Shown piece by piece: positions 9,558 through 58,244 of a stretch of DNA of 64,000 nucleotides. The position numbers and the translations under genes were made by a program. This DNA is from a virus, in the IMG/VR virus record IMGVR_UViG_3300036792_000176, positions 1 through 64,000 of that record; one strand, written 5' to 3'. Numbering within the stretch: the first letter of the stretch is position 1; each line of letters begins with the position of its first letter. Under the pieces are notes generated by a model. It saw nothing but the letters and a program-made list of their open reading frames with translations, had not been told where the DNA came from and searched no databases.

Positions 9558-10972
9558 AAAGCCACGAAGCTCCTGTATAGCGCGCGGATGCCGAAGTCTC
9601 GGTCGGCAATTACGTACCTCATTGCGTCGCAGCCGTCGTCGTCAACCTTGGACGGCTCCTCCTTGCCCTTATCGGACCACACGTAGCCAGGGATCTCCTC
9701 CAGCGTGCACGTAGGCCGTGAGCCCTCGACAAGCTCAGGGTCGCGCTCCACCACAGCGTCGGCAAGGAGGTAGATCCGGGGCCGACCGTCACCCTCCGGC
9801 CGTAGCCGCCTCTGTATGGCCTCAATGCCCTCGGTCACCGCCTTATGCGCAGGCTGCACGGTCATCTCGATCTCGCGCTCGAGTACGGCACGACCCTCGG
9901 CATCGTGGTCCGCGACCACCGTAGTCGGCCTAGGCTCTAGCCACTCTCGCTCGCAGCCTTTGTCCCTGAGCAGAGTCTTGTCGTGATTGCATCCCGCCTT
10001 GCGGCAGGGGGCCACGATATCCATCATCTGCTGCGCATGCTGGTCGACAGTACGATGCGTGTGGTATATCTCTCGGTACAGGTACATCCGGCCATCCGGA
10101 TCCTCGCACCAGCTCTGGAGGACGAATGGGTGGACATATCCAAAGTCAACTGACCAGTAACGCGGCCAAGCGAATGGTATGCCGAATGCGTCTAGAGGTT
10201 CGTCAGGAGAATGGAGTGTTGCAAATGCATCGCGGGAGAGAACATGGAAGGCATTAGAAAACTCCTCGTAAATGACTCCCTCTGCAGCAACCCAATTGCC
10301 TCGTCGTAGTCTCTGATAACGAACACCGGTGAGATTGTCAAGCTTGGAGATGTAGTCTCTTCCTCGCTCTGTGATCTTCCCGGTGCCGTCGAAGAGGATG
10401 GGGTTGTCTTCATGCCTGCTCTCCAGCATAACCGTACGGCCGTCGTCACAGCGGCGCTTCAGCCAGTGTGTCGGGAAAGATGGGTTGCAGTCAGCCAGGA
10501 GCTGCTGGAAGCTAATCCTCCAGTTTCGGAGGCGAGTCGTGAGGCTCTCCCAGTCGTTCTCGCTTAGCTCCGTTGCCTCTTGCACATAGATAATGTCGTA
10601 CTCGGATGACATTATCTTGTCGATCTTGTCGAGACCGCCGATAGCGATCACGGACCCGTTTCGATACTTGTACTGAGGCGGCTCCTGAGCGGATCCCCCA
10701 TAGAACCATACCTCCCCAGAGTCGAGCGCTTCTCTCGCCACGAATCTCTGCCATGTAACAAGGGCGGTAGAGGACAGTGTAGTCGCAGTCTTGCGGCATA
10801 TCAGTCCGCGCATCCCAGGGTTTACCAAAGCCATCAAGTGGATCTTCTCGAGGCATGCTCGGCTCTTCCCGGTTCCGGCCGGTCCTGCTAGTAGCACCTC
10901 GGCATCGCGTGCCTTCATTGCAACGCGGCAGGCTTTACGCGGCCCGTACCTGTGCACAGCCTGGGTAGGCAT
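9527..10972 (-). CDS. terL: Terminase large subunit
   Basis: Walker A GPAGTGKS, Walker B-like IIYVQEATE, CNP...HWL, nuclease SVDFGY..P, and DD.CDA.RY. Confidence 0.93.
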   Translation of the reverse strand: MPTQAVHRYGPRKACRVAMKARDAEVLLAGPAGTGKSRACLEKIHLMALVNPGMRGLICRKTATTLSSTALVTWQRFVAREALDSGEVWFYGGSAQEPPQYKYRNGSVIAIGGLDKIDKIMSSEYDIIYVQEATELSENDWESLTTRLRNWRISFQQLLADCNPSFPTHWLKRRCDDGRTVMLESRHEDNPILFDGTGKITERGRDYISKLDNLTGVRYQRLRRGNWVAAEGVIYEEFSNAFHVLSRDAFATLHSPDEPLDAFGIPFAWPRYWSVDFGYVHPFVLQSWCEDPDGRMYLYREIYHTHRTVDQHAQQMMDIVAPCRKAGCNHDKTLLRDKGCEREWLEPRPTTVVADHDAEGRAVLEREIEMTVQPAHKAVTEGIEAIQRRLRPEGDGRPRIYLLADAVVERDPELVEGSRPTCTLEEIPGYVWSDKGKEEPSKVDDDGCDAMRYVIADRDFGIRALYRSFVALWPTFRTKHK

Positions 10973-14099: not shown

Positions 14100-14672
14100 T
14101 TACCGGGTTCTGGCGAAATATCCCGGTCCTTTTAGGGTCGGGACAGAATTGCCGTTGCTCTGGGACAGGCCGAACAGCGTCTCGGCATTGTCGGCGGTGT
14201 ACGAAGGCTGGTACCACACCTGCATCTTGGTTCCGTCGTTCACGCTGTCGTTGACCCGGTCCATGAACATGCCGTTCAAGTCGGCTAGCCCGTAGCCCTG
14301 CGAAGACGGAAAGTTTTCAGCCTGGAACGAATTCCAGATCTGGCTGGCATCACCGTTGCACGTCCAGATCTGAAGCCGGAGTCCGTCCGAGGTCCCGGTC
14401 CCGTCGACGCACTTGCCGTTTTGCATGCGGATCTCGTATCCGCCGGTCACGGGTATCGCCACGAACTCCTGGTTGGCGTTATCCAGGCATGACCACTCCT
14501 GGAGCTGTGTACCGTCATCAGTGCTGTTGAATGGGTCGTCGATACAGTGATCGGTGTTCTGCGAGAAGTAGATGGAGGAGTAGTTAGTCGCATACGCCGG
14601 GCTAGCCAGGACGATCGGGGCAGCTAGAGCGGCCACGCCGATGAACGACATGCAGGCACTTATCTTCTTCAC
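14100..14672 (-). CDS. Secreted ricin B (beta-trefoil) lectin domain protein
   Basis: GTG start with AAGGAG RBS; signal peptide ending AYA; C.D...Q.W.C...NQ.F / QxW repeats. Confidence 0.85.
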   Translation of the reverse strand: MKKISACMSFIGVAALAAPIVLASPAYATNYSSIYFSQNTDHCIDDPFNSTDDGTQLQEWSCLDNANQEFVAIPVTGGYEIRMQNGKCVDGTGTSDGLRLQIWTCNGDASQIWNSFQAENFPSSQGYGLADLNGMFMDRVNDSVNDGTKMQVWYQPSYTADNAETLFGLSQSNGNSVPTLKGPGYFARTR

Positions 14673-14724
14673 TGGATCTCCTTTTCTATGCCGAGTATCG
14701 ATTTGTGCCATGGCCTCAGACGGC

Positions 14725-15192
14725 TCATGGCTCGAACTGCATGACACTAAGGTCGCCGACCGTGACCTTGTCTGTTCGCCTGTACATCTGCGATCCAGTA
14801 ACCTCGGAGTCGTCGTTATAGGTTGGCAGCATCATCGTCCCGCCAACCCAGTGCGACCTGGGGATAGCCATCTGGGTGCCATCCCAGTATCCGCCACTCA
14901 GGACGATATTGACACTCTCGCTCTTCGGATCGTCTATGCGGTGGTCTCGCTCTTCTATGCCCGCTAGTGCCCGCTCTTCCATCAGGTTTGGGCCAGCCCA
15001 CTGAGGAAAGTGCCCTTCTTCGAATACGAGCGTCAAGGTGCATGTTTTGCTGAGCCTTTTGGGCGCTGATGGATCAGGGTCTTCCATCACTCCCCGTGAT
15101 ACGCTTATGGTCGTGATCTTATCGTCGTCGAATACCAGTGACATACCGTCTGCTATCTTCGGGGTGATACGTATCTCGGTCATCAGTACCAC
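14725..15192 (-). CDS. Hypothetical protein
   Basis: ORF in minus-strand operon. Confidence 0.5.
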   Translation of the reverse strand: MVLMTEIRITPKIADGMSLVFDDDKITTISVSRGVMEDPDPSAPKRLSKTCTLTLVFEEGHFPQWAGPNLMEERALAGIEERDHRIDDPKSESVNIVLSGGYWDGTQMAIPRSHWVGGTMMLPTYNDDSEVTGSQMYRRTDKVTVGDLSVMQFEP

Positions 15193-15848: not shown

Positions 15849-16394
15849 CTAGTATAGCGGGTGATCTTGCTGCAGGTTGGGGGTTTCCGAATACCCGTTC
15901 TCTGCCGGCTCTGGGGATGTCAGCCCTACCTCGCGGATTCGTGCCTTTGCTGCCTTGTTGAGCACCTCGCGAGGGTCTTTGCGTTCTTGTCTTTCCGCGA
16001 GGAGGAAGCTCTCGTCCTTGCCGTTGGGGCCGTGAGCTAGGGCGTCGTTGAGCTGTATGATCAGCTCCTTTATCTCTTTCCTATCGATATCGGTCCAGAA
16101 GAGGTAGTCTTCTTTCATCCCGTTCTGGTCTCGTACCGGCTGGGCGTTGTTCCAGCTTATCTTGACGAAGGGGTGGTAGTGCAGTCTGGCCTCTTCATCG
16201 AGCTCCGAGTGGTTGTAAGCGCACTGCTCGGCCCACTCGGCCTCTGCCAGCTCCATGGCCACCTTCTCCAGGATGTCCGGGGAGCTCTGTGCTGCGGCGG
16301 GGAATGTCTCCCCTATCTTCTTGCGGGCGTCCTGGAGCACCTCGCCGTACGTACGGTAGGGTGTCTGCGGTTTGTCTTCCTTATTCTCGGGCAT
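15849..16394 (-). CDS. Hypothetical protein, paralog of 15183-15806; probably leaderless mRNA
   Basis: ATG 6 nt downstream of a TATACT box. Confidence 0.65.
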   Translation of the reverse strand: MPENKEDKPQTPYRTYGEVLQDARKKIGETFPAAAQSSPDILEKVAMELAEAEWAEQCAYNHSELDEEARLHYHPFVKISWNNAQPVRDQNGMKEDYLFWTDIDRKEIKELIIQLNDALAHGPNGKDESFLLAERQERKDPREVLNKAAKARIREVGLTSPEPAENGYSETPNLQQDHPLY

Positions 16395-16400
16395 GCGCGA

Positions 16401-16430
16401 AGTATAGCGCGCGGGAACGGGCTTCCGCTA
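16401..16430 (-). promoter_or_regulatory. TAGC-class promoter (leftward)
   Basis: TAGCGG-N18-TATACT-N6-ATG. Confidence 0.75.
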
Positions 16431-16582
16431 CCCTCTCGCGTATATGCAGTCTCCTGGATTCTGTTTCCAGGGTGTCCGCTATATACGGGATTCCGTGTGT
16501 ATCTGTTTGTATCCATCTTATATCTCCGAGGTATAATAAGAGGGTAAAGTCCGGGTCCATCAAACAAGGAGCAAGGGTCACA

Positions 16583-16846
16583 ATGGAAATTCCTGACAAG
16601 TTCTATCGGCAGTCCGATCCGACGCCGCCTAAGCAGCCGCTTCGCATCTTCGGGGACCACCCCAACTCGTTTGCGATAACGTGGCTGTTCTACGCATTCG
16701 TGATCTTCTGGCCATTCATCTTCTTCCACGGAGTTGCACTGGTTATAGTGCAGACTTCGTGGATCGTGTTCATCCTGGCTGTGCTCATCGTGCGCCACAT
16801 CGTGCTGACGATCAGGGACGGTGCGTGGACCAAGTTATCCATGTAG
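16583..16846 (+). CDS. Small two-TM membrane protein
   Basis: AAGGAG RBS, TATAAT upstream (~16533), hydrophobic helices. Confidence 0.65.
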   Translation: MEIPDKFYRQSDPTPPKQPLRIFGDHPNSFAITWLFYAFVIFWPFIFFHGVALVIVQTSWIVFILAVLIVRHIVLTIRDGAWTKLSM

Positions 16847-16874
16847 CCAATTTCGCCTCCCGCCGCTGGCGGTA

Positions 16875-16904
16875 AAAGCCCACTCGTGGAAACGGGTGGG
16901 CTTT
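16875..16904. terminator. Intrinsic terminator (possibly bidirectional)
   Basis: AAAGCCCACTCGT-GGAA-ACGGGTGGGCTTT. Confidence 0.75.
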
Positions 16905-17034
16905 GCCATTGGCTCGCATCGCCATTTTCGTCGCTGATGTTACTGGCGGCAGGAATGCAGTTTGCTGGAAAGTGATTTTTACATCTCCAGTAGAAATAAG
17001 TATCCAGGAGCGCTAGCGCTGTTCTTCCAGACAA

Positions 17035-17225
17035 TATGGTAACCATAATACTTGTATACCATGATGTTAACCACGGTTAACGACTGGTCAGGGTTAGGAC
17101 AGATCCCTTGGTAGCCATAATGTTAACCAACCTACCGAGTCTGTGTCAGCGATACCTTGGTAGCCATAATGGTAGCGAAACTACCGAGTCTCTGTCGGGC
17201 CGAACACTTGGTAGCCAAGGTAACC
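17035..17225. repeat. ~50-bp periodic direct repeats
   Basis: CTTGGTAGCCA at 17107, 17156 and 17207; first two units also share TAAT and CTACCGAGTCT.TGTC; degenerate TGGTAACCATAAT at ~17037. Confidence 0.85.
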
Positions 17226-17297
17226 AGGAGCAACTGGTGACTACGTAAAGTTACAGTGTAACGTTACCATTTCGTTACCCAAAAAGGCCGGTAAGGG

Positions 17298-17326
17298 TAG
17301 CGCCTAGGGGCCCTAGGCGCTATACT
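17298..17326 (+). promoter_or_regulatory. TAGC-class promoter, probable major early promoter
   Basis: TAGCGC-N17-TATACT; shares CCTAGGCGCTATACTTA with the promoter at 21157. Confidence 0.8.
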
Positions 17327-17498
17327 TAAGCTATAGCCCGCCGGTAAGGGGGCGGTAGGGCCCCCGGGCCCGGGGCCCCGCGCCTAGCGCGCGGGGGCCC
17401 GGTCCGGCCCGGGGGCCCGGGGGTAAAGGCCGGTAGGCGCGTACCCCTAGCTAAAAATGAAAGGCCCGGGTACTGCCGGGTAGGGCTTGGTTGCCTAC

Positions 17499-17516
17499 GC
17501 TACTTGAGAACTGAAT
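17499..17516 (+). promoter_or_regulatory. boxA-like antitermination element
   Basis: GCTACTTGAGAACTGAAT resembles the actinobacterial rrn boxA (TTGAGAACTCAA-type). Confidence 0.55.
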
Positions 17517-17519
17517 TTA

Positions 17520-17735
17520 TGACGCCCGTGCTGACGGGCCGGAGTACGGAACCGCGTAGGGAGAGGACTCTACGTAGGCCGTTAATGCCGGGGGACGCCT
17601 AGGTAAACGACTAGGACCCTACCTTTGTATAACCGTAAGTGGGAGTGTTGTGGCGCTCCCGCCCCTACGGTTACCGTGAGGCTAGGCCGATGAATATGGT
17701 AACGGGCTAGCCTACGCGGGTACCGTACGGTACGA
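17520..17735 (+). ncRNA. Highly structured 5' leader / candidate ncRNA
   Basis: Serial stems GCCCGT/ACGGGC, CGTAGGG/CTCTACG, CCTAG/CTAGG, TAACCGTA/TACGGTTA, AGGCTAG/CTAGCCT; no credible ORF. Confidence 0.45.
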
Positions 17736-17760
17736 AAAACCCTTCAAAAGGAGAATTACA

Positions 17761-18156
17761 ATGGGTACCACCGCTCCGAAGACCTCCCCCGCCCCTGCTG
17801 ACGCCCCGGCCCCCGACCTGACGGTCGTCCCGCCGCTGTCCGACGCTGAGGCTGCGCGCGCGGCGCTGAAGGCCGAGCTCGCCGCCGAGATTGAGGCGGA
17901 CCTGCGGGCGAAGCTGACCGCTGAGCTGACCCCGCGCTCCCCGGCCGTGAAGCGTGAGGCCAAAAAGGCGCTCGCCTCGGCGATGATCGCGGCGATGGGT
18001 GACGCCCTGAAGGCGCTGCCCGCCGACCACCCCGCTAACCTGGTCGGCTCGCCCGCTGAGCGCGACCAGATCGTCGCCCAGTGGGTTCACCACTTCCCGG
18101 CCGACCGTGAGACCTGGACCGACCACCTGCCCGCCCCGGTTCGCGCGGGCTGGTAA
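17761..18156 (+). CDS. First early protein; shares QW.HHFPA.R..W..HLP.P.R..W domain with 25940-26932
   Basis: AAGGAG RBS, strong codon bias, clear paralogy. Confidence 0.85.
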   Translation: MGTTAPKTSPAPADAPAPDLTVVPPLSDAEAARAALKAELAAEIEADLRAKLTAELTPRSPAVKREAKKALASAMIAAMGDALKALPADHPANLVGSPAERDQIVAQWVHHFPADRETWTDHLPAPVRAGW

Positions 18157-18234
18157 CTACCGGCGAGTCTGCCTGATCGCCGCCCCCGCCATATGGCGGA
18201 CGGGGGCGGCGGTCGGGTAGGTTACCACGGTAGG

Positions 18235-18263
18235 TAGCCTAAGTACAAAATGTAGGGTATGCT
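18235..18263 (+). promoter_or_regulatory. TAGC-class promoter
   Basis: TAGCCT-N17-TATGCT. Confidence 0.6.
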
Positions 18264-18300
18264 TGAACTGTAAGCTCGCCCCCGTCCGAAAGGTAAGAAA

Positions 18301-18507
18301 ATGTACTCCTCGCTTAACTCCGCCGCCGCTGACGCCGCTGAGATTGCGGTTGACGCCGTGATCGTGTCGGCTGACGCCGAGGGCCTGCTCTCCGACTCCG
18401 CTGTCGTCGGGTACCGCGCCTGGTACGCGGTGTACCTCGCTACCGGTAAGTTCGGCGTTGCTAACGCCGCTAGCTACTGGGCTCCCCGCTACTCCGCTGC
18501 TGAGTAG
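18301..18507 (+). CDS. Small early protein (no His/Gln; CA-free gene)
   Basis: GAAAGG RBS; ORF bounded by repeated intergenic elements. Confidence 0.75.
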   Translation: MYSSLNSAAADAAEIAVDAVIVSADAEGLLSDSAVVGYRAWYAVYLATGKFGVANAASYWAPRYSAAE

Positions 18508-18599
18508 CCTCCCGGCTAACCTGCCTGATCTCCCCGCCCCGTGCGGGGAGGTTGGGTAGGCTACCACGGTAGGTAGCTGTGAAATGAAAGGGGCCCACA

Positions 18600-18854
18600 A
18601 TGCCCAGTACCGAGATGAGCCCCATCGACGTAGCCGAGCAGGTTGGCGGCGACGTGATGACGGCGAGCTACAATGAGGGTCTCGACTGCCAGTCCGACCT
18701 GGTCGGGCTGCGGATCTACGCCGCCATCTACCTGGCCCTGTTCAAGTACGGCCAGTTCGTGGCGGAGTACTACGCCGAGCAGTACTCGGTGAACGACGAG
18801 CCCTACTTCACTGACGCCCATGAGGGTGACAGCGCGTTCGGCCCCCTGAGCTAG
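18600..18854 (+). CDS. Small acidic early protein
   Basis: GAAAGGGG RBS; between repeat elements. Confidence 0.7.
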   Translation: MPSTEMSPIDVAEQVGGDVMTASYNEGLDCQSDLVGLRIYAAIYLALFKYGQFVAEYYAEQYSVNDEPYFTDAHEGDSAFGPLS

Positions 18855-18930
18855 CGGCTAGCTTCCCCGGTGTCCGGGCTACCCGGACACTCGGGGTGGC
18901 TACCACGGTAGGTAGTCAGGAGAGGAAGAA

Positions 18931-19056
18931 ATGCCAAGTGACATGACTGAACTGACCCTCAGGCAGAAGGCCAGGGCGCTGGTCGCCTTCGGCCTGGCCG
19001 ACGACATCAACGAGGCATACGCCCAGCTGGAGGACATGGGCGAGGACGACGACTAG
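18931..19056 (+). CDS. 41-aa early peptide (MPSDMTELTLRQKARALVAFGLADDINEAYAQLEDMGEDDD)
   Basis: Not in ORF track; GGAGAGG RBS; between repeat elements. Confidence 0.7.
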   Translation: MPSDMTELTLRQKARALVAFGLADDINEAYAQLEDMGEDDD

Positions 19057-19138
19057 CGGCCTGCTTTCCCGGGGCTCGGAGCAATCCGAGCCCACGGGAT
19101 GGCTACCCCGATGGTAGTCAGGAGATGGAGAGTAAGAC

Positions 19139-19474
19139 ATGAAGTGCGGATACTGCTCTGATCAAGCGGTGGCCATCCTGACGGCAACGTACATCCGGCA
19201 CCCCAAGCCCACGCCCGTCTGCCAGACGGACCTGGACCGGCTCAACAAGCCCGACAACTTCGACAAGATGCCGACGGTCACGGGCATCGAGCGGGTCTGG
19301 TGCGAGAACCCCGCGCACTCCTCCGATCCGCACTACCCGACCATGACCGGTCGCTACACGGACGCGGACTCCGCTGCCAAGGACCCCAACGAGTGCCACT
19401 GGCCGCACCTGGTGCCGCCGGTCGCCGACCTCCCGGACAGGCCGGAGGGGTACTACCACAGCCCGCTTGGCTAG
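19139..19474 (+). CDS. Small Cys/His-rich early protein
   Basis: CxxC..., GGAG RBS. Confidence 0.7.
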   Translation: MKCGYCSDQAVAILTATYIRHPKPTPVCQTDLDRLNKPDNFDKMPTVTGIERVWCENPAHSSDPHYPTMTGRYTDADSAAKDPNECHWPHLVPPVADLPDRPEGYYHSPLG

Positions 19475-19547
19475 CGGTCCAGCTTCGGTCCCGCCCCTCT
19501 GGGGCGGTGGCCGTGGCTACCCCGATGGTAGTCAAGGAGAGGAAGAG

Positions 19548-19763
19548 ATGAACACCGAGAAGATCGAGCTCCGCATGACTGCCCTGGAGGCTGACTCGGT
19601 AGCTTACGTCATCATGAGTGCCCTCGGTCGAGTCACGATGCTCGACAGGGAGCGCGTCGACGCCACGGCGGCTGCGAACGAGCTGTTCAGGCAGCTGGGG
19701 TACGGGCACCACACCACACTTCACGGCGAGCGCGTCGAGGACAAGGTCAAGGTCAAGTCCTAG
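19548..19763 (+). CDS. Small early protein
   Basis: GGAGAGG RBS before ATG 19548. Confidence 0.7.
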   Translation: MNTEKIELRMTALEADSVAYVIMSALGRVTMLDRERVDATAAANELFRQLGYGHHTTLHGERVEDKVKVKS

Positions 19764-19848
19764 CGGCGAGCTGCCCTGGCCACCCGCCCCGTGCGGGTGA
19801 CCGGGGGAGCTACCACGGTAGGTAGCTGAGCAGGAAGGACAACCCCTT

Positions 19849-20360
19849 ATGCGAGTCCAGACCAAGACCGGCCTGCGTGGGACGGTCATCGACACGAGGG
19901 ATGGCGGGGACAAGAGCCTCGTCCAGTTCGACAACGGAACCACCTGGTGGTGGTTCACCGACTGCCTGGAGGCATTCCACGCCTTCGGCATGTGCTGCGT
20001 CTGCCGTGTGCGCACGGCCATGCGCGGCAGCGGGTACTGCCCTACATGTAGGAGGATCTGATGCAGGTCAAGTTCGAGAACCTCACCCCCACACAGGTCG
20101 CCATGCATATGGCGAACAACTGGAGCGACCCCATGGCAACCGACAGATTCTTCGTCATGGACAAGCTCCCGCTCTGGCCGGGCGATATGGCCCAGATCGG
20201 CCCGTTCACAGTCATCTGCGAGGACACCGAGCTCGACGATGCCAGGTTCACGGTGACCTGGGATGCCGAGCCGTGTATCCACCCCGGCGTGTTCGCCAAC
20301 TCCCAGCCCACAACTCACTGCTGGGCGTGCGACACCGACGTCCCCCGAGAGCTGCTGTAG
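19849..20360 (+). CDS. Two coupled small early genes (19849-20061, 20061-20360)
   Basis: TGATG coupling; Cys motifs. Confidence 0.65.
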
Positions 20361-20453
20361 GACAACCCTCCTGATACCCGAGCCGACCTTCCCTGCGGCT
20401 CGGGTAGCGGGAAGGCTGCCCATCAGGGTAGCTGTGTCGAGAGAGGACACACA

Positions 20454-21131
20454 ATGCTAGAAGAGCTCCTCAAGGAAGCCAGGACCTGGCTGCTCGACTG
20501 CGGCATGAAGCAGTTCGGGCAGTCCAAGAACGACAAGTTCGTGGCCCTGGCGATCCACACCTACTACGACGGCCGCTGGCCCGCGTTCGTCGCGGCCGAC
20601 CCCGCCATGGACGAGTACACGGCACGGCTGGAGATGGACGCGCGCTGGGGCTGCGCCACGGCCGAGAAGTTCCTGCCCGTTAAGGAGGACGAAGATGCAC
20701 TTCCCAGCACCTGAGTGGGGATGGGCCCTGACCGAGAAGGTCGCCATCAGCAGGGTCGGCGACAGCCAGTACCTGATCCTGAGGTTCCCCGAGAACGGCA
20801 GGGACGTCATGCTGGTGACGTTCACGCCCGAGGGCCGGATGTGGCTCAACGGCCAGGACGTCGACGTTGCCGATGACTTCATGGGGTTCATCGGCATGTT
20901 CGACGAGATGAACGCCGACGGCGAGCGCCCCCTGTGGGAGCAGTACATCAGCTACCCGTTCGTAAACGAGGACGAGGAGTAGCAGTGGCCAGATACGAGA
21001 TCCACTATAGCAACGATCACTCCGAGGTCGAGCACCTCTGGCGCGCGGAGGACAAGCTGCTGCCGGAGCTCACCCGCATCGTCGAGACCCCGGGTCTGGA
21101 CCTGCTGCTGGTTCGGGCGCACGAGGCGTAA
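20454..21131 (+). CDS. Three small early genes (20454-20714, 20695-20982, ~20985-21131)
   Basis: Purine-rich RBSs, GC3 bias. Confidence 0.6.
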
Positions 21132-21156
21132 GCGCCTAACGGCCAGCGGATAGGGG

Positions 21157-21185
21157 TAGCGGTGCGCCTACCTAGGCGCTATACT
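21157..21185 (+). promoter_or_regulatory. TAGC-class promoter
   Basis: TAGCGG-N17-TATACT. Confidence 0.8.
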
Positions 21186-21223
21186 TAGGGTAGGCGTACC
21201 GCCCCCGGGAAAGGACAGCAAGA

Positions 21224-23207
21224 ATGGCTAAGGACAGCAATAACCTCCGTGACGTCAGAGGCGTCGAGCACAAGATCCTACCGGACCGCAACAGCAAGTG
21301 GTGCCACCACTGCGCGGTATGGATGGGGATCAACGAGGACCATGAGTGCGACGTTCATCTCGCAATGGACATCTTCAACTACAACTCAACGGTCGCCGCC
21401 AAGATGGCGCTAGGCGAGGGCATTGACCGGGAGACGGTTGCCGCCTGCCTACGCAGCCTGGCCGACGCAATCGAGACCCAGGACTGCGCCGAGGACATGT
21501 CCCCGATCTACGACAGGACACTCTCCCAGCTTCACGGCTGACGGGTTCTATCCTGACGGTTGCTGAGTACCGTCAGGGTGGTGTCCGACAGGACAAGAAG
21601 GAGGAAGAAATGCCTTACGACCACACCCCTGGTTGCGAATGCTACATATGCAAGCCGGATCCGGGACAGGACCCCTTCAAGAACAGCCAGGTCAGCCCGC
21701 CCAGGAGGATCGTGTTCAGGGCAGAGGCGACGAATCACGACTACGTCACCCCAGCCATGGCTGCCAGGCGTGACAAGGCCGCCGCCGAGTTCACGGACCG
21801 CACTCGTCCGCAGGCGGATGTGATCGCCCAGTCCATCCTGGACAGCGACCTGTTCGAAGACATTGACTGCACCGCCCCTCAGGGCAGCGAGGTCGTCTCA
21901 TCGTTCTTCTTCGACGACGAAGAGTACGAGTACGAAGTGACAGTCACCGCAAGGAACAAGACCGAGTACCACATGAACAGGAGCAAGTGATGTCAACCCC
22001 CGTCCCGTCCTGGCTGCTTAACGAGCCGGTCATCGTCACGCTGGTGGCCATGAACCCCGATGCCGCCTGCACCGCAGTCCTGATCAACAGGGAGATCGTG
22101 CCGGCCTCGTACAACAGGCCTCACGTGCCAAACTCCACGGCCGTCGTCATCATCTACGGCGAGGGCTTCGTGTCAGTCAACGGTGAGGACATCATGGCCG
22201 ACGAGAGCGACGAGACCATCCAGCGCCTCTGCAGCCTGGCCGACGTCGTGACCATGGCCCCCAACCCCCAGTGCGGCACCTGGGTCCGCACGCAGGACAC
22301 CTACATCCAGGACCACTTCAACGCCGAGGCAGACAGGAACAGGTAACATGACGAACCCCATCGCAAGGAACATCGCGGTCGCCATCGCTGACGAGTGCAG
22401 CATGTCGTACCACCCCGTGACCGAGGACACCGTCCTCGGTGACATGACCGTCGGTGACGTCGAGCCGGGCGGTGCCAACCGCCCGAACGAGCTGTCAAGG
22501 TTCACCCTACAGGATGACGACTGGCTGTACACGGTGGTTGTCCGGCGCGATCGGCCAGTCCGATGACCGTCATGCGGCAGGTCCTGCCGATCCTGAACTC
22601 CAAGCTGTTCACATGGAGCAGGGAGAGCAAGTCGTACGTGGCCGAGGCATCTGACCTCGGCCTCCGGGCTGGATTCCAGTTCGGTCGGGTGTATGATGAC
22701 TCGATCGACGAGGGATTCACAATGCAGTCCCAGTTCGACCCCAGCGACCACGTGGTCTGCGTGGTCACGGACATCGATACCAAGGAGGGGGACGTCAGGT
22801 TCTGGGTCCTCAAGCCGGTCAGGAACACCGATCGGCTCGACTGGAAAGTAATCATCTTCAACGATTAGGAGCAAGCAGTGAAGGACGCAGACGCAACACA
22901 GATCAAGCACGGACGCTCCAGGATCTACCTGTACCCAAACGGTGAGATCGTGGTGGTCCAGTCCAACAACCTGAGCAAGCCGCCCATGAACGTGACAACG
23001 GACTGCGACGGCGAGCGTACCAGCTTTACCATCCCGGCTCATTACCCGGACAAGATCGACCCTGAGAACCCGGACACCTGGCGCTACTACTGCCCGGCTC
23101 ACCCGGAGGCCACGGTCGCCGATGCTGTACAGGACGGGGCCGAGATGACATGCGGCCACGCGGTGACGGTGCGCCGCCTATACACCCCAGAGCCCGAAAA
23201 CGACTGA
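21224..23207 (+). CDS. Run of six small hypothetical genes (21224-21541, 21610-21990, 21987-22346, 22348-22566, 22563-22868, 22878-23207)
   Basis: Contiguous or coupled ORFs with RBSs. Confidence 0.65.
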
Positions 23208-25798: not shown

Positions 25799-25939
25799 GT
25801 TCATATCGGCCTCCCCCGCCGGTAAGCGGTACGGCGGGGGAAGCTGAGCCAACGGGAAACCGACAGGACACCCCGGCCCCGACAGACCAAACCGCAACAC
25901 CCCAGCCCCACAATGGGCACCAAGAGGAAGAAGAACAAA

Positions 25940-26932
25940 ATGTCCACTGTCATCGAGTGCGAGGGCGCAGGCCAGGCCTGGTCCTACCTCCTCCAGGACT
26001 CCAACGGCAACTCCGTCGACCCCCGGACCGACAACGACACCAAGACCAAGACCACCACCCAGCTCCCCGGCTGCCCGGTCTGCCTGCTCACGGCCAAGGA
26101 CCTCAAGATCAAGGTCAGCCGCAAGAACGGCAAGCTCTCCCCCATCCACATCCCCGAGCACATGGTCGAGGTCCCAGGCGACGAGCTGCTGTTCATGCTC
26201 ATCAACGGCGAGTTCGATGTCCACGTCAAGGGCTGCAACCGGATCAAGGCCCAGCTCAAGAAGAGCGACTACGAGCGCCCCGGCACCGTCCTGGCCACCG
26301 ACCCCCACGACCTGGTCACGCAGCTGTGGGATGACATCATCCCCGAGGCCTGGGTTCAGGAAGAGGACCCGGAGGGCACCCCCGAGGTGCGCGACCCCGA
26401 GACCGACGAGCTGCTCAGCCCGATCAACCCCACCGACGAGTGGCTCGAGAAGCACAACTACTACAGCGCCACCGGCATCCACACCTGCGTCGCCAAGCTC
26501 GGCGGCGAGTGGGCCAACGGCACCGGCGCCAAGGGCAAGGCCAAGTCCAACGGCGGCGCGTCCCGTCAGGCCAAGCGGGACCTGGCGCTGGTCCTCGTCG
26601 AGGCCATGGCGCAGGCGATCAAGGAGCTCCAGGACGACCCGGCCAACGACCCGAACAAGATCATCCCCACCCTGGGATACGAGGAGGCTCGCCAGGTCGT
26701 CGCTCAGTGGATCCACCACTTCCCCGCCAACCGCGACGAGTGGATCAACCACCTCCCCCGCCCCAACCGCTCCGACTGGATCACCGAGTCGGAGGCTGCC
26801 GGCACCCAGACCAGCGACGAGACGGACGACGACACGAACAGCGACGCCGACGCCACCGACGAGGACGAGCTGGACGAGAACCAGAACGACGAGGACACGG
26901 ACCAGGAGGACGAGGACGACGCCGAGGAGTGA
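25940..26932 (+). CDS. Probably highly expressed protein with HHFPA domain and acidic tail
   Basis: Extreme GC3 bias; paralogous C-terminal domain to 17761-18156. Confidence 0.85.
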   Translation: MSTVIECEGAGQAWSYLLQDSNGNSVDPRTDNDTKTKTTTQLPGCPVCLLTAKDLKIKVSRKNGKLSPIHIPEHMVEVPGDELLFMLINGEFDVHVKGCNRIKAQLKKSDYERPGTVLATDPHDLVTQLWDDIIPEAWVQEEDPEGTPEVRDPETDELLSPINPTDEWLEKHNYYSATGIHTCVAKLGGEWANGTGAKGKAKSNGGASRQAKRDLALVLVEAMAQAIKELQDDPANDPNKIIPTLGYEEARQVVAQWIHHFPANRDEWINHLPRPNRSDWITESEAAGTQTSDETDDDTNSDADATDEDELDENQNDEDTDQEDEDDAEE

Positions 26933-27007: not shown

Positions 27008-27272
27008 CGGCGTTCAGACGGACGCCAAAACCCGATATCTCACAGACTGCTGAATGGTGGAGCTCCGAAATAAGGCCGATTAGCCGTCCGCCCCTACCGG
27101 TACCCGGTAGGCTAGCCGCGCGGTCCGTACGGCGGAGCTCCCAAAGGATTCAGGGGTATCCACGGGGACCGCCCCGGTAAGCTACCCTACCCGGTACCCT
27201 AGCTTTACCACTCCGGCTGTAGTACCCTACCCCTTAGACCCCCGCCCCTACCCGAGAATAGGGCAGCAGGTT

Positions 27273-29712
27273 ATGAAACTGACAATCAGCATACCGATTA
27301 CTGAGGACATGCCGGCCCTCACAGAAACAGACCGCATCACCTACCCATCCCTCACCGCAACAATGATCCCCACCCAGTCTAACGCTGGCGGCCACCCGCT
27401 GTACGAGTTCACCGGCGAGGAGGCAGAACTCCGCGCATGGCTGGTGAACGAGTACGGCCTGACGAACGCAGAGGCCACAGCGGTCATGTGGCACACTGAG
27501 ACTGACAGGAACTGAACGATCATGAACGTAACCAGCGACGTCAGCTATGACGACCCGGTATTCACCAGTACAACGTACGTCAACCCGAGCAGCGACATCT
27601 TTGGCCGCAGGGTGAGGGCCGACCTGATCGCAGCCACCGTCGTCAAAGACGGGACCATTAAACCCCGATACAACCGATACATCTGGGGAGTCACGTCCAG
27701 CGGCCTCCTGCGGTGCTACCTTGACTGGGACGGGTCCCGGAGCTGGTGTAGCATTGCGCCACAGTCACTCGATGATCACCACATCCCCCTCCCCATCACC
27801 TATCGCAATGCCGCCCAGCGCATCGTTCAGGTGCTCCACCCCCGTACCATGCGCATCCGCGCAATCGACCCCGCCATGATCATCGAGACGCTGTGATGAA
27901 CACCCATACACACACTAACAAGAGGACACAGTGCCCGAGATAGAGTATGACCGAATCTACGGCTATCACGTCGGCGGCATCAGCATCACATTCGGGAGGG
28001 CCAGGCAGGATGAGAAGCACGGCCCGAGATTCTACGGTGCTGCCCTCAGCGAGGAGCAGCTCAAGCGAGGGCTCGAGACAGGGTTCGGCGCTACCGAGTC
28101 TGAGGCGGTCGCCGACATGTTCAGGCACATCCGCCCGATACACTTCTGACACACAACACACGCAGCACAAGAAAGAAAAGGAGCATCATGGAAAGAGACC
28201 AGATCCCCCACACCGCTGATCGTATCATCCTCACGAACGGGCGGGAGATCGTTCACACCCACCACGCTACAAAGAGCACATGGCACATCGTGCTCGAGCG
28301 GGTAGAGCGCCTGGGCAGGGCACTCACCGACACCGAGATATCCGAGTTCATGCAGAGCGCCCCGGTCGCCCGCATCGAGCACACGGACAGCACATCCCCC
28401 ACCGAGTACTGGCGCGAGCTGGACGAGGACGCCAATACGCCGGACGTCATGGCTCTGCCCACAGACGCAATCAACGACGTCGACGAGGAGCTGGGCCTGA
28501 ACATCAGGAAGCTCACGCCGGAGGAGCTGGAGGCAGACCGCCTAACCTTCGAAGAGTGGCTAGGGCGCACTGGCCGAGGGTCTATGCAGGAGTTCATTGA
28601 CCGGGCCGTGAAGAAGGCCAATGACCGCTGGCGCAGGACCTGGTACCTAGAGACCGGCGGCTGCCCGTGCGAGCAGGGCCCCGAGTGCGGCTGCAGGCTA
28701 TGCCCCCAGTGCGGCCCCAACGGTACCATCGCGCGCAAAGACGCGGGTGAGATCGACAACGAGGCCGAGACGCTAGGAGCCCAGGCAGCCCACGAGGAAG
28801 CAATCCAGACAGGCCACCCCAGCGGCGATGTGTATCTGGAGGACATGCTGGATGACATGGCCCCGACCGCACAGAAGACGACCTACCCCGACTGGGTGGG
28901 CCAGATAGAGGAGGGAATGGCCCGCCCCGGGCCAGGACAGGCCGAGGACAACTACGTCTACCCCATGGAGTGCGGGCACGAGACGGACAGCCCGAAGCCA
29001 CTTGTAACTGGCGCCATCGTACACTGCTCAGTTCACGGACAGACGTACATAGCAAAGGGCGAGGGTGATGGCGACGTGTAGGCACTGGCCGTACTGCGTG
29101 GGCAACGGCCGTTACTGCTGGAAAGAATGCCCGCCCAATCCAATGCTGGACTCAGACAGGTATCCGGATGAAGTGCAGAGCAGAACAACGGAAGGGTTCG
29201 TGATGGCAGACAACGCATTCATCCTCCTCAGGATGATCCAGTCCTACGCCAAGACGCCAGACCAGAAGGCAAAGGCGAACGACTACTACGGCTACGTCCA
29301 GAGACAGGGGTACAACGCAGACAGACAGGTCGCGGAGCTGGCCAAGGTCCTGCTGACCGGCCTCGTGGACAGCAACTGGCCCTGGTCCCCGACCACAGAC
29401 CGCACAGCCAGGTACGGCGGCCCGCAGGGCGTCAACAGCCCCATCTCCCGTATCGACTGGGGTGCTAAGCCAGAGGAAGAGCAAGACAATGAGACGGTTC
29501 AGCCCGCGCACGACATTCCTGAGCTACGCCGGCAGTACCTGGAGATCATCTCGAGGAACATCACAAACGAGCAGATGTCCCAGGCCAACAAGTACTGGGA
29601 CAATACCATGCCGATACTCATGTCTGAGCTGTACAACATGACAAGGAACGTGTCAAGAAGAGCGGACCTACGTCAGCAGACGACTACCGAGAATACCGAG
29701 ACTACCGGGTAA
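27273..29712 (+). CDS. Hypothetical genes (27273-27515, 27522-27896, 27931-28149, 28188-29081, 29065-29712)
   Basis: Tandem ORFs with RBSs; no recognised domains. Confidence 0.6.
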
Positions 29713-29748
29713 GCGGGTACCTAGCCGCGCCTAGCCCTAGCCGTACCC

Positions 29749-29777
29749 TAGCCCTAGGGCCGTGCATACGGTAGGAT
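29749..29777 (+). promoter_or_regulatory. TAGC-class promoter, leaderless
   Basis: TAGCCC-N17-TAGGAT-N6-ATG(29784). Confidence 0.8.
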
Positions 29778-31628: not shown

Positions 31629-32693
31629 GTGGGACGGTCGGGTAACAGAGAACGACAAGCCGAACGAGATAGTGCTGAGGATCGACGGATAGGAGAAGCT
31701 GTGCCAACACCGACTGGCCTGCCAAAGGTGGGCGAGGTCTGGGAGAGCACCAGGAAACTCCCAGGTCAGAAGACAAACGTCCAGCGGTTCGTCGTGCTAG
31801 AGCGCGGGCGTGGCGACTACTGGTCTATGCGCGTGTACATTCCTGGGAAGGGCGTTAGCCTATGGGTCGATCCGGCTTACCAGATGAAGATGGGCGAGCT
31901 GAAGTACATCGGCCCGGCGAATGCTGAGATCAAGAAGAAGCTGGGTCTGAAATGAGAGTGATCCTCGACTTCTACTTCGACGACCTGGAGCAGCGCTGCC
32001 TGAATCCGAAGTGCGACTTCAGAGTCGGGCCGTACAGCGAGGAGTGGCGCGGTGGCTGCCCCAACTACCTGGCCGAGGAGCGGAGGACATGCAACAGTGC
32101 GCTCGGATTCTTCCGGGCGTTCGGGAACGAGGCACAGCGCAGCGTTCAGGTGAGGCGGGAAGACGCCCGCCTCCCTGGATCGAACTGCAGGCCAGACGTT
32201 ATCTACGGGGAGAGGTTATGGGGTACAACAACGAGGCGATGCACACTGCGATGTCCATTCTCGAGGCCATCGCCATTCCGGAGCTGCCGGCCATGCTCAA
32301 GAAGATGGTGCTGGATGGCACAGCCGAGGTCATCTGGGACCCGCATGTTAGCGGTGTCGTCGGCTTCATCTACCCAGGCACCAACAGGGCCATGTGCGTG
32401 GTGTACGTTAACCGCAATGACTTCGAGCTTGAGGACGAGTTCGAGAACAAGGTAATGCGGTCCGGTACCGACGTCACAATCAAGGAGGATGGCTCGTGAA
32501 TGAAGGATGCAATCACAGCAAGATAGGGTCGATCGCGTCCATCGAGGAGGGCAGGCACTGTGCATTCATGACGTGCCCGAACTACCGCGAGAAGTGCCCG
32601 TTGCACGCTATCGCGAAGACAGGGGAGGAATGCAACCTGACGATGCGGACCGACGTTACCCTAGCCGACCCGCCGGTACCGCCGGTACCCTAG
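31629..32693 (+). CDS. Small hypothetical genes (incl. 31629-31955, 32218-32499, 32496-32693)
   Basis: Coupled ORFs; starts uncertain. Confidence 0.45.
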
Positions 32694-32718
32694 CCGTACC
32701 GCGTACGCCCCGGTACCC

Positions 32719-32748
32719 TAGCCCTAGCGGTATGCATACGGGTACGAT
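32719..32748 (+). promoter_or_regulatory. TAGC-class promoter
   Basis: TAGCCC-N18-TACGAT; near-copy of the 29749 promoter (GTACCCTAGCCCTAG..TGCATACGG..GATATACCTA). Confidence 0.8.
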
Positions 32749-35035: not shown

Positions 35036-35064
35036 GCCCTGGAGCTCCGAGATACGGACGTAAG

Positions 35065-35096
35065 AGGGCCCGGTAGCCGTACGGCTACCGGGCCCT
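35065..35096. terminator. Perfect 32-bp palindrome between convergent genes (terminator or binding site)
   Basis: AGGGCCCGGTAGCCGTACGGCTACCGGGCCCT. Confidence 0.7.
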
Positions 35097-35138
35097 AGGC
35101 GCGCGGCGTAGGGGCGAGCTCCGCCCCGTTTACGCGAG

Positions 35139-35669
35139 CTAGAGGATCATAGGGTTCCATAGGCGGTCGCGTAGGCGGGCTGACTTACGGGCACGACGTA
35201 GCATGGTGATGAGGTGACGGGCAGCATCACGCTTATGCATACTGCCTACAGTATCCTGGTACAGACCCCAGGCCCTGAGACGATCGTCCGTAGCGGTGCT
35301 CTTCGCCATACCGCGCGTCTGCTGCACGATACGCGCGTCATTCAGGAATCTACGATGCCTGGCATACTCGAGCATGGCATTTATGCGAACCGGAGAGAAC
35401 ACGTCATCGTCTGTGAAGGGGTTGTCATTATCGAACTTCTCGGTGACGACGGCCGGTCCTATTCCGTAGTCCAGGCTCTGTACCTCACGGACGGTTCGGG
35501 CGATAATGTCAACCTGGGCACATTCATCGCCGGTAACCTCTCGGCACTCGAAGCGCAGCCATCTTCCGGGGGCATCGCCGTAGATCGACATCCGAGGTAC
35601 CTGTGCTATGCATATCCCAGTAGTTCCGCCAGGATCAAGTGCGACCATGTTCAGATGCGGGGGTGTCAC
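35139..35669 (-). CDS. RuvC-like Holliday junction resolvase
   Basis: VALDPGGTTG, VVTE, H.RDAARH. Confidence 0.75.
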   Translation of the reverse strand: MTPPHLNMVALDPGGTTGICIAQVPRMSIYGDAPGRWLRFECREVTGDECAQVDIIARTVREVQSLDYGIGPAVVTEKFDNDNPFTDDDVFSPVRINAMLEYARHRRFLNDARIVQQTRGMAKSTATDDRLRAWGLYQDTVGSMHKRDAARHLITMLRRARKSARLRDRLWNPMIL

Positions 35670-36278
35670 ACAGTCACCACGATTACTGCTATCACTGCCG
35701 CTAGTGCGACGACCATGCATGTCATGACGATGCCTAGCATGAAGCCAGCTACAGCAGGAGGGAAGTCCACTCCTGTAGCCATGAATGTAATTGTACGAAT
35801 TCTCTCGTCCAGATCTGCGAGCCGTGTCATCACCGGATCACTTCCTTCCATTCTTCCCATTTCATATTGGGGTGGTCTTGCTCCCAGCGTCTTCGCTTCT
35901 CGAGCTTGCGGTACCGTTTGGCCGTGTAGAGCATGAAGCCACATATTGCAACTAGTAGGTACGGAATCATTTCCGTTATCATATCCGAATACCTCCGGCT
36001 AGTGTCTGTGATGAGAGGGTAAGGTAGCCAATTGCATGAGAAGCCATCGCCAGAATCTCGGGTAGTGGCAATGCCCTGCACGAGATATCTACCGGGCAGT
36101 GAAGGTCACCGGAGTACTCGTCATACTGCATATAAACACCGTGAATTCCGCAGAACGGCGATGAAGAGGAGTCGGGCAAAGTTTCCCTTTCTGCGTATTA
36201 AGGTTTCTCGGGCGGACCCCCGATCGGTACGGTAAGGTAACCGCTAGCTAAGCCCGAGCCCGGAGGTCCTGCCCGATA

Positions 36279-40805: not shown

Positions 40806-41692
40806 CAGTAGAAGAGGTGAGGCGTGTCCAGAAGGTACTCGGCCTCCTAGACACGCACTTGGTATACGTGGATGCGGAAGAGGGATTCTGGATGGCGCAC
40901 ACTCAGCAGGAGCGCGAGAGTGTGCCAGATCTGCATGAGTGCCGCATCCACAGATACCTATGCCGCGAGCCTATCGTGGTTACCGGCTGGTACATAATCG
41001 AGGAAGACGGATCGATCGGAAGGATTGACATGAGAATGGAATCGCCGTGATACGCGAGGGATTCGAGCGCCTGTACGCCACATGGGTGTATAACTTCGAC
41101 AGATGGGCGTGGAAGCGGCGCTGGCGCATGATCAAGATGCGCCACAGGGAGTTCACCGATAGGTTCGAGCACTGGTACGAGACTGGCAACTGGTGGTACG
41201 ACCGTGGGTGAATTCATAGTGGCCATGGCGAAGGAGATTGCATTCATCGTCATGGCCACGACGGTGATCCTTGCCGTCCAGTACCTGATAGTACGATACA
41301 TCCTGAACGGGATCATGGACGTGGTAGACCACACGCACCCCCTGGCTCTATGGCGTCTGCGTCTTCTGTTCTTCCGGCTCAGCGGTCGATGCCGTGAGTG
41401 TCATCTCAGGAACGGCATCCACAGGTTCGGGTGCACCAGAAGACAAGGCGAGGAGTGACTATGTATTTCTGGCCATGGCTTGCAGCACTTCTGTCATCGC
41501 TAGTTGCATGCTTCGTTTTCCTGGCGGCTGCGATGCTGTCGAACCCTGGGTCTAAGAGGGAGAAGTTCATGGCTTACATGTGCGTGAGCTCTTTCCTTGT
41601 ATTCCTGCTGCTGGTGTACATGTCCGCATCTATACACGGGGTAACCTCCAAGTAGACTGCGCGGCCGGTAGGAGGGTTTCTAGCCGAAACGG

Positions 41693-41721
41693 TAGCGGGC
41701 TCCGGCCCGGTACGGTACGCT
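41693..41721 (+). promoter_or_regulatory. TAGC-class promoter
   Basis: TAGCGG-N17-TACGCT. Confidence 0.75.
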
Positions 41722-41754
41722 TTACCTAGCGCCCGAATAGAGTAGGAGAGCCGA

Positions 41755-52450: not shown

Positions 52451-52487
52451 CGTGCATCCGCACAATTCCACCCGAGATTGGAATAGA

Positions 52488-57363: not shown

Positions 57364-58225
<862 letters not shown>

Positions 58226-58244
58226 CAATCCCCCTCAAATAGAC

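Follow-up and report, generated by a model that had tools for sequence, protein, structure and literature searches.

Why would a phage keep one dinucleotide out of one strand over a single 1.3-kb zone of its genome? The question is raised by an uncultured soil phage, IMG/VR virus record IMGVR_UViG_3300036792_000176, which has 87,997 bp and 58% G+C and is called G000 where it has to be told apart from its relatives. Its first 64 kb (64,000 nucleotides) form the stretch of DNA analysed here, referred to as the window. At the head of the rightward gene arm, adjoining a divergent intergenic region, positions 17281-18565 (the zone) hold 13 CA dinucleotides on the plus strand against 72.7 expected (Poisson 8e-18), and 72 TG against 71.3 expected. 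A sequence-only reading had proposed that TG is purged from the template strand of the first-transcribed genes, that a modified base lies in 5'-TG-3' and impedes unassisted host RNA polymerase, and that the two genes in the zone may let transcription proceed; as an alternative it offered evasion of a CA-cleaving ribonuclease by the mRNA. The zone and its borders consist of the following parts.

17247-17279, plus strand: boundary block, with two CGTTAC-type repeats about one helical turn apart and a GTTAC..GTAAC palindrome
17281-17458, no strand assigned: segment free of CA and TG, GC-rich and largely palindromic, with GA also absent
17459-17745, plus strand: untranslated leader, CA-free and TG-containing, with a strongly structured plus-strand RNA
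17761-18156, plus strand: gene 1, 131 amino acids, helical, of no known family
18157-18245, plus strand: hairpins after gene 1, a long hairpin and a short repeated hairpin GYTACC-ACGGTA-GGTAGC
18301-18507, plus strand: gene 2, 68 amino acids, rich in Ala, Asp and Tyr, with 0 CA
18508-18585, plus strand: hairpins after gene 2, a hairpin and the short repeated hairpin, with the CA-free run ending inside the repeat at 18565
18600-18854, plus strand: gene 3, just outside the zone, an internal control with normal CA

Selection has purged CA from the sense strand

The loss of CA from the zone is near-total and concerns one strand. In 20,000 mononucleotide shuffles of the zone the minimum CA count was 48, and the imbalance between 13 CA and 72 TG has a binomial p of 4.6e-11. 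The avoided word is therefore not equally rare on both strands, as it would be if a palindrome or a word on both strands were avoided; the sense strand lacks the motif and the antisense strand has it, which is the arrangement expected of transcripts that evade the motif of a toxin RNase. As a duplex, the zone retains the CA:TG step 85 times (13 CA plus 72 TG), and a strand-blind reader is thus excluded.

A recount agreed with the two CA-free stretches described in the sequence-only reading: 17281-17745 (465 bp) has 0 CA and 18 TG, and 18247-18565 (319 bp) has 0 CA and 24 TG. No CA-free run in the 87,997-bp genome is longer than these two, the third being 246 bp long, and the expected number of such runs at the genome CA rate is 7.7e-11 for 465 bp and 1.8e-6 for 319 bp. 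The genome-wide CA observed/expected ratio is 1.05, with no deficit. The dinucleotide profile along the genome, suggested as a check by the same reading, gave 4 CA against 30.9 expected for 17501-18000, and no other 500-bp interval was comparable.

Other dinucleotides are shifted as well. TG had been called common after 17458, and this is correct, as 17258-17458 contains 0 TG and all 18 TG of 17281-17745 come later; TG is depleted in 17281-17458 only, is normal or raised from 17459 onwards, and is raised in gene 1 (27 against 16.7 expected). Within the 178 bp of 17281-17458, the base after T is A in 17 cases, T in one and C in one. TA is doubled over the whole zone (75 against 37.0 expected), and the leader has 45 TA against 17.0 and 4 TC against 21.7 expected. 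The zone loses every NCA, not ACA alone; two ACA are left by eye, at about 17758 and about 18245. Both of them (17757-17763 and 18244-18252) lie directly upstream of an AUG, and UUACAAUG abuts the start codon of gene 1. The zone is also rich in GGCC, CCGG, GCGC and CTAG, which are enriched 5.6-8.7 fold in 17281-17458, and holds further palindromic restriction-type sites (GTAC and GGGCCC); since such palindromes are abundant, the purge is not general restriction avoidance.

The purge is the result of selection, not of amino-acid content or composition. Gene 1 has the 8 CA counted before, 6 of them in His/Gln codons and 2 at codon junctions, and gene 2 has 0 CA and, by alignment, a product without His or Gln. 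When 119 crude gene models were resampled synonymously with the phage's own codon usage, gene 1 and gene 2 were the two most CA-poor (8 against 21.4 and 0 against 8.4 expected), with the lowest two z values (-3.9 and -3.5) followed by a gene at -2.2. Codons that stand before A end in C in 2 of 28 cases in the zone genes and in 2485 of 5512 elsewhere (Fisher 2.4e-5), while before C, G or T the zone genes use C-ending codons as frequently as the other genes or more so. The codons that rise most before A end in G (18/28), and T-ending ones reach 7/28 against 12% elsewhere. In gene 2, C|A is found at 0 of 7 junctions; gene 3 has 12 CA against 14.3 expected and C|A at 7 of 16 junctions. The larger paralog of gene 1 had been described as CA-rich, and 25913-26932 indeed carries 93 CA against 74.0 expected (z +3.5 in the same resampling). 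A sliding scan of 1559 codon windows placed the top 13 for loss of avoidable CA in gene 1, gene 2 and the tail of an SSB-like gene. In the small orphan genes that open the presumably early arm, CA is thus depleted at the level of codon choice.

The untranslated parts of the zone are purged as well, and their predicted stems are built around the missing word. The 480-nt leader, folded as RNA over 17281-17765, reaches -258.2 kcal/mol on the plus strand (z -5.7) and at -222.3 on the minus strand, and its core at about 17505-17700 is conserved with the relative G005, with 11 of 44 predicted pairs compensatory and 0 broken. The compensatory pairs and the better plus-strand fold indicate that the leader acts as an RNA in the sense direction; the conserved element 17505-17700 has no Rfam family match. 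The hairpins after genes 1 and 2 have G·U wobbles where a Watson-Crick partner would create CA. After gene 1 (-58.4 kcal/mol on the plus strand against -46.2 on the minus strand), G·U makes up 5 of 31 pairs, and UA or CG stands opposite the stacked UG steps; after gene 2 (-44.2 against -36.8), G·U makes up 5 of 30 pairs, and CA stands opposite none of the stacked UG steps. Over the predicted stems of the zone, UA, CG or UG is the partner of 11 of 12 stacked UG steps. The hairpin after gene 3 has canonical UG/CA pairs, and CA is the partner of 6 of 10 such steps in the five hairpins that were folded from downstream sequence.

The sequence itself is well supported by an independent assembly. In the Logan assembly of the sole public run with this DNA, one 22,366-nt contig spans 16900-19100 with 0 differences. 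That run is soil metagenome DNA, is the only holder of the DNA among public runs and is probably its source; no RNA run is listed as a holder.

The purge belongs to a slot and varies among relatives

For comparison, relatives were taken from IMG/VR: two full-length genomes (G005 and G001) and several fragments, including L014. The portal protein of G005 is 85% identical and its gene 1 homolog 57% identical to those of G000. The gene 1 homolog of G005 has a normal CA content (25 against 32.1 expected). Its leader has 13 CA against 33.7, 21 TG against 25.3, 35 TA against 20.4 and 10 TC against 22.0 expected. At 20 aligned CA sites of G005, the state in G000 is CA in 8, CG in 3, TA and GA in 2 each, and AA, CC, CT, TG and GT in 1 each; with so many substitution routes, a single editing chemistry is unlikely.

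In L014, whose portal is 74% identical, the slot is purged over different genes. The 900 nt after the boundary block have 16 CA against 56.1 and 18 TG against 43.6 expected. In the first slot gene, C|A stands at 1 of 31 junctions and the codons CTG and GTG are not used; for the two slot genes A and B combined, the C|A count is 2 of 41 junctions, compared with 17 of 36 for the next two genes (Fisher 1.5e-5), each of which is normal singly (8/21 and 9/15). Genes A and B have no homolog in G000. G001 (portal 73% identical) has no clear purge at the slot. Some purge is therefore found at the slot in two of three relatives: strong in L014, in the leader only in G005, and not clear in G001. Since L014 shows the purge at this slot with unrelated genes in residence, the purge goes with the position after the boundary block and not with the resident genes, and its strength and strandedness vary among close relatives, from none through leader only and both strands to sense strand only. 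The unrelated genes in the L014 slot also weaken the proposal that the two proteins of the zone let transcription proceed, as does the finding that gene 2 is unique to G000, with no homolog in G005 or G001. Gene 3 is a paralog of gene 2 (37% identity), and it too occurs only in G000.

The boundary block occurs once in the window, and the purge starts directly after it. About 40 bp of it are identical in G005, and a variant (..CCGTTTCGTTAC) lies ahead of the purged slot in L014. The block may be an early promoter, an operator or a DNA end. When the leader and the boundary blocks were used as DNA probes, G005 was the only match in IMG/VR, and nothing was found in metagenome contigs. An 8.5-kb second contig from the same soil sample, at lower depth, has only the boundary block in common (window 17259-17284) and then diverges; this contig probably comes from a further relative whose slot holds another cassette. 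The boundary-block word (..TATCGTTTCGTTAC..) recurs on the minus strand at L033 about 9910-9925, genome about 69.9 kb, and in G005 at about 6.5 kb. This second copy sits at the far end of the plus-strand arm, within a CA/TG-free island and beside a TATAAT-like hexamer, and may be a shared operator. Upstream of the block, 17097-17250 contains three tandem units of about 50 bp (CTTGGTAGCCATAATG..), which look like operators or promoters, and a related word at 17037-17060 is found in G005 too.

Beyond the zone, the phage group has short islands that lack the step on both strands. Ten islands outside the zone in G000, 1,071 bp in total, contain 0 CA and 0 TG against about 62 and about 56 expected, and runs of at least 72 bp without CA/TG number 11 in G005 and 7 in G001 against about 0.4 expected. 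The islands are mostly intergenic and 78-166 bp long. Those located are as follows.

1214-1379: CA/TG-free island
27059-27142: CA/TG-free island
29678-29763: CA/TG-free island
32645-32733: CA/TG-free island
35041-35148: CA/TG-free island
36193-36270: CA/TG-free island
41659-41756: CA/TG-free island
L033 9736-9927: CA/TG-free island

In the islands, CTAG, GGTA and GTAC are 3-7 fold enriched; with the other neighbours of A and T gone, TA-centred words simply become more frequent. No single motif dominates, and the reading of the pattern as a by-product of one repeated motif was rejected. By eye, GAGCTCC and a GCTCCGAAATAAG-like word are present in several of the islands. The C-terminal tail of the SSB-like gene (57791-58226; acidic, of Ala/Lys/Pro and ending in ..EEPPF) behaves similarly within a coding sequence, with 0 avoidable CA against 9.8 and 0 avoidable TG against 5.2 expected. 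Before A the tail takes GCT, GCG, CCT or GGT, Val is encoded by GTA, and the coding strand of the G005 homolog is likewise poor in CA. General avoidance of CA in untranslated RNA was considered and rejected, as the sense CA observed/expected ratio of spacers, defined by a crude gene caller and including missed genes, is 0.95-1.08 in three genomes. Some hexamer palindromes are avoided genome-wide in G000 (ACGCGT 2 against 14.2, GGCGCC 7 against 34.2, AGGCCT 6 against 21.4 expected) and in G001 (CTCGAG 0 against 24.7 expected), and the most avoided palindromes in G000, G005 and G001 all lack CA/TG.

The setting of the zone is as follows. On the minus strand left of 17 kb lie genes for terminase, portal and a ClpP-type protease. 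The plus-strand arm runs from 17761 to about 70.9 kb, with small orphan genes first and replication and recombination genes after them (prim-pol/helicase, SNF2 helicase, PD-(D/E)XK nuclease, AAA_24 ATPase, SSB-like protein, ThyX, exonuclease, PHP and DnaE). From this gene order the zone is presumably the first early transcript. A scan for consensus promoters produced three weak sites ahead of the zone, and the transcription start is fixed by none of them. No tRNA gene lies inside the zone in a tRNA scan, and an Rfam scan of 16500-19500 gave nothing near any gathering score. A T5-type first-step-transfer (pre-early) region would be expected within a long terminal repeat at the first-entering end; the record has no exact terminal repeat, and IMG/VR classes it as linear, with end repeats not found. 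A near-identity search of GenBank phages with 16000-22000 gave no match, and a search of the same phages with the primase protein gave only distant relatives at about 25% identity. The nearest cellular-MAG (metagenome-assembled genome) relatives of the phage DnaE (L033 5598-7976) are all on Chloroflexota contigs at 30-34% identity, a weak hint to the host.

The protein of gene 1 (gp1) shares its C-terminal W..HHFPADR..W domain with the end of the paralog 25913-26932, with H110 and H111 invariant. Its structure model is of low confidence (pLDDT 64, pTM 0.28), and a homolog search returned the protein itself and one other protein. Pfam and PHROGs scans of gp1 and of the gene 2 and gene 3 products (gp2 and gp3) gave no match. 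PADLOC matched gp1 once, weakly, to a model of a Type I specificity subunit (E 0.00094), and this match was given no weight. In a protein Atlas search with the large paralog the best hit scored 0.79, below the level reached by shuffled proteins. Elsewhere in the window, two tRNA-Met (CAT) genes lie 1.7 kb apart (52377-52451 and 54123-54197). Ricin-type beta-trefoil lectin domains are present in the proteins of 14100-14747 (minus strand) and 50155-51093 (plus strand), both without counterpart in G005 and G001, and these proteins may be host-range or glycan-binding factors.

A proposed DNA mark at the CA:TG step and its rivals

A near-total, selected purge of one strand implies that some factor in the infected cell reads CA strand-specifically at the very start of infection. 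The explanation we favour, with a probability of roughly 35%, is a DNA mark linked to the CA:TG step and cleared from the template strand; in its simplest form the marked base would be the T of TG. The virion DNA of the phage group would carry this chemical mark, which in the simplest case is added to the T of 5'-TG-3' after replication. On the template strand, marks would hinder the unaided host RNA polymerase, and the first, time-critical transcription unit would be kept without template-strand TG. Marks on the non-template strand would be harmless there, and short intergenic windows whose duplex is read by proteins would be kept clean on both strands. The both-strand islands and the both-strand purges of the L014 slot and of the unrelated cultured phage ECML-117 favour a cause at the DNA level, since one DNA-level factor can explain the one-strand and the both-strand patterns together, and a sense-strand RNA reader leaves the avoidance of TG unexplained.

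Enzymes with a suitable taste exist. According to the accessible part of PMC13229309, the phage T-dioxygenase 5mYOX176 prefers NTG and 5mYOX97 prefers NTC. Phage-type uracil modifications acted on T7 RNA polymerase mostly positively from the non-template strand and in a mixed way from the template strand (PMC11550810, from the portion available). The modified base that had been placed in 5'-TG-3' is therefore enzymologically plausible, given the NTG dioxygenase (same part of PMC13229309), although a gene for the modification was not found. As for the claimed purge of TG from the template of the first-transcribed genes, the strand, the selection and the position at the head of the arm stand firm, and their being transcribed first is suggested by gene order.

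Several observations weigh against such a mark. Six-frame searches of the genome gave no TGT/DpdA, ThyA-type enzyme, N6/N4, C5 or Dam-type methyltransferase, PurZ or TET/JBP, although divergent or new enzymes are possible, and there were 0 matches to PF12851, PF00303, PF01702, PF01555, PF00145, PF02086 and PF00709. About 70 proteins compared with Pfam yielded only a generic class I methyltransferase, ThyX and a ParB-like protein. The six-frame search had missed a weak ParB_N match (E 0.0022, below the cut-off) that a later protein scan found, so its blanks are not proof of absence. The ParB/Noc-like protein (43957-44808; HTH_ParB 6e-11, TIGR00180 1.9e-14) is conserved in G000, G005 and G001, and no dioxygenase-like gene lies beside it. 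The nucleotide-metabolism cluster at 58.6-63.5 kb is common to G005 and G001, which lack a gene-level purge; a link of the purge to this candidate modification cluster was for that reason not supported. If a family-wide mark blocked RNA polymerase, all relatives should need the purge. Moreover, 13 CA persist in the zone, and the rest of the plus-strand arm is CA-normal, including replication genes that are necessarily read from parental DNA. Hexamer palindromes with CA/TG are not clearly less avoided than those without (median observed/expected 0.94 against 0.90 in G000, p 0.23; 0.99 against 0.92 in G005 and G001, not significant), and Escherichia coli phage ECML-117 (JX128258), which resembles G000 in part, has 14 GAATTC and 9 GATATC sites that a TG-linked mark would not protect.

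We consider it possible, though rather unlikely, that a host factor instead reads CA in single-stranded RNA, as a MazF/HEPN-like endoribonuclease or a CmdT-like RNA modifier might, and that the first messages evade it; these would probably encode counter-defence proteins, made before the factor is neutralised. The sense-strand-only purge covers a long untranslated leader that acts as plus-strand RNA, its stems stay paired through G·U in place of CA, and in G005 the naked leader is purged and the translated gene is not. Variation among close relatives would suit a host-specific arms race, and the sole fully CA-free gene, gene 2, is a lineage-specific acquisition. Two-letter RNA specificities also exist: in the text available to us, the RNA-modifying toxin CmdT ADP-ribosylates GA (bioRxiv 10.1101/2024.02.24.581662) and MazF motifs span 2-5 nt and include U|GN (PMC13107127), and the idea that certain genes are short of MazF sites is a recognised one (PMC5408214, likewise in part). 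However, such a reader needs a second factor for the TG avoidance in the L014 slot genes, the both-strand islands and the SSB-like tail, and untranslated spacers are not CA-poor genome-wide. The leftover non-coding CA lie in predicted hairpin loops and beside the ribosome-binding site, where a single-strand reader would have access to them, and no CA-specific enzyme appeared in the portions of the toxin literature at hand. The genes unique to G000 contain no recognisable RNase, toxin or modifier. Whether DNA or RNA is read, a simpler rationale than a transcription-enabling role of the two proteins is that the first messages are time-critical.

Another strand-aware host factor could act on the DNA that first enters or is first opened, such as a nicking enzyme, a toxin that modifies single-stranded DNA, or a sensor of CA on the non-template strand displaced in the first transcription bubble; alternatively, it could act at a genome end lying at the boundary block. 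The purge does begin right after a conserved block in three phages, and the both-strand purges of L014 and ECML-117 fit a duplex or two-strand target. We nevertheless regard this as improbable, as the record is classed as linear and no exact terminal repeat was found in it, the zone is full of ordinary restriction-type palindromes, the 85 remaining duplex steps exclude a strand-blind reader, and a precedent for such a CA-reading enzyme was not found. That nothing reads the dinucleotide at all, and that CA is lost as a by-product of codon bias, of selection on RNA structure or of a repeated TA-centred motif, is very improbable. A-ending codons do make up 0.5% in the two genes against 11.6% elsewhere, the leader is very structured, and TA-centred words are enriched in the islands. 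Yet C-ending codons are favoured before C, G and T and shunned before A only, the non-coding leader and hairpins are purged as well, and hairpins outside the zone use CA, so structure does not require its absence; nor is there a dominant motif, the TA-centred rise following from the lost neighbours, and the L014 slot is purged over unrelated genes. Least credible of all, and rejected on the varied substitutions and the codon-end pattern, is that strand-specific hypermutation or editing left the pattern, for instance through C-to-T changes at CpA on an exposed non-template strand. The doubled TA of the zone, the 6 Tyr and absent His of gene 2 and the raised T-ending codons before A would suit it. 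Against it, G000 has CG, GA, AA, CC, CT and GT besides TA at the CA sites of its relative, G-ending codons before A rise most, there is no genome-wide CA deficit, and the boundaries are sharp, with functionally constrained His/Gln codons kept.

Comparison with known systems

Avoidance of restriction sites in phage genomes is a known case in which selection removes short words read by a host factor, and G000 shares with it the strong genome-wide avoidance of some hexamer palindromes. Restriction-site avoidance is symmetric and genome-wide and concerns palindromes of 4-8 bp; here a dinucleotide is lost from one strand over 1.3 kb in a palindrome-rich zone. CpG depletion in vertebrate RNA viruses is an evasion of the CpG-binding protein ZAP. 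It resembles the present case as a dinucleotide-level purge of viral RNA, with a host factor that reads two letters, and differs in that it concerns eukaryotic viruses and is genome-wide and partial with a known reader, whereas the purge described here is local, nearly complete and in a phage. CmdT and MazF toxins, as described in the accessible parts of the papers, read two or three letters in single-stranded mRNA and block phage expression; those parts report no CA specificity. Messages without the motif are immune to such toxins, as in the logic of ACA-less mRNAs. According to the authors of the CmdT study, a motif this short makes mutational escape implausible (bioRxiv 10.1101/2024.02.24.581662, in the part available). 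If an RNA-targeting defence is the cause, the zone would be just such an escape, confined to the first transcript, and the first natural example known to us of a phage recoding its messages to escape a dinucleotide-specific agent.

Motif avoidance as evasion is thus a known kind of signature. In a search of the literature on dinucleotide avoidance and depletion, judged by titles and abstract openings, we found no purge in phage early regions, and a local, near-complete, strand-specific dinucleotide purge at the head of an early arm was not found in print by this search.

The nearest parallel to a DNA mark is provided by the 5mYOX dioxygenases, whose targeting of T plus one further base (PMC13229309, accessible part) matches the contexts depleted here, namely template TG and leader TC. 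A TET/JBP-type gene was not detected in G000 by the six-frame search, and an HTH domain is absent from the dioxygenase activators (same part of PMC13229309) and present in the ParB-like protein of G000. Unmodified stretches and early genes are not mentioned in that part of the paper. If a DNA mark is the cause, the purged windows would show both its place, T in TG, and its cost, in transcription. It may also help to explain the restriction resistance of cultured phages such as Wifcevirus, which are reported to resist restriction-modification systems without a known protection mechanism and to be sensitive to EcoP1I (PMC11990801, in the portion available).

A close parallel among cultured phages is ECML-117, a Wifcevirus of E. 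coli that is unrelated to G000. At about 6.9-8.4 kb it has 5-8 CA and 4-9 TG per 300 bp against about 17-20 expected. It shares with G000 a block of small orphan genes of about 1-2 kb in which the CA:TG step is down about three-fold and TA is raised, and it likewise has DnaE (36% identity over 563 aa), ThyX and a PHP domain. In contrast to G000, its depletion is partial and on both strands, whereas in G000 it is near-complete and, past the first 178 bp, confined to the sense strand; a rise of CG is found in the ECML-117 block and not in the G000 zone. Among hexamer palindromes in bases 1-63000 of ECML-117, the median observed/expected ratio is 0.78 without CA/TG and 0.97 with CA/TG (p 0.0054), and the 12 most avoided all lack CA/TG. 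This contrast, like the restriction resistance of Wifcevirus, counts in favour of the DNA mark. Eight hexamer palindromes lacking CA/TG are wholly absent, for example AGCGCT (0 against 24.9 expected) and TCCGGA (0 against 18.5), and GATC occurs 111 times against 271.5 expected.

A tentative generalisation, which we hold to be unlikely as it stands, is a widespread and so far undescribed phage DNA mark at the CA:TG step. One example would be a new modification of a T that adjoins G, produced by enzymes outside all known families; the mark may be connected with the ThyX/oxidoreductase/DnaE module that the phages share. Were it true, host RNA polymerase and DNA-binding proteins would fail on marked DNA in hosts as different as E. 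coli and soil bacteria, phages would keep clean windows, on both strands where the duplex is read, and the zone would be the clearest evidence that the template strand matters. With its graded series of relatives (none, leader only, both strands, sense strand only) and an internal control in the paralog, the phage group lends itself to a direct test of the question, and beside the both-strand, partial depletion of ECML-117 the G000 zone stands as a very clean sense-strand-only case that is bracketed by its relatives.

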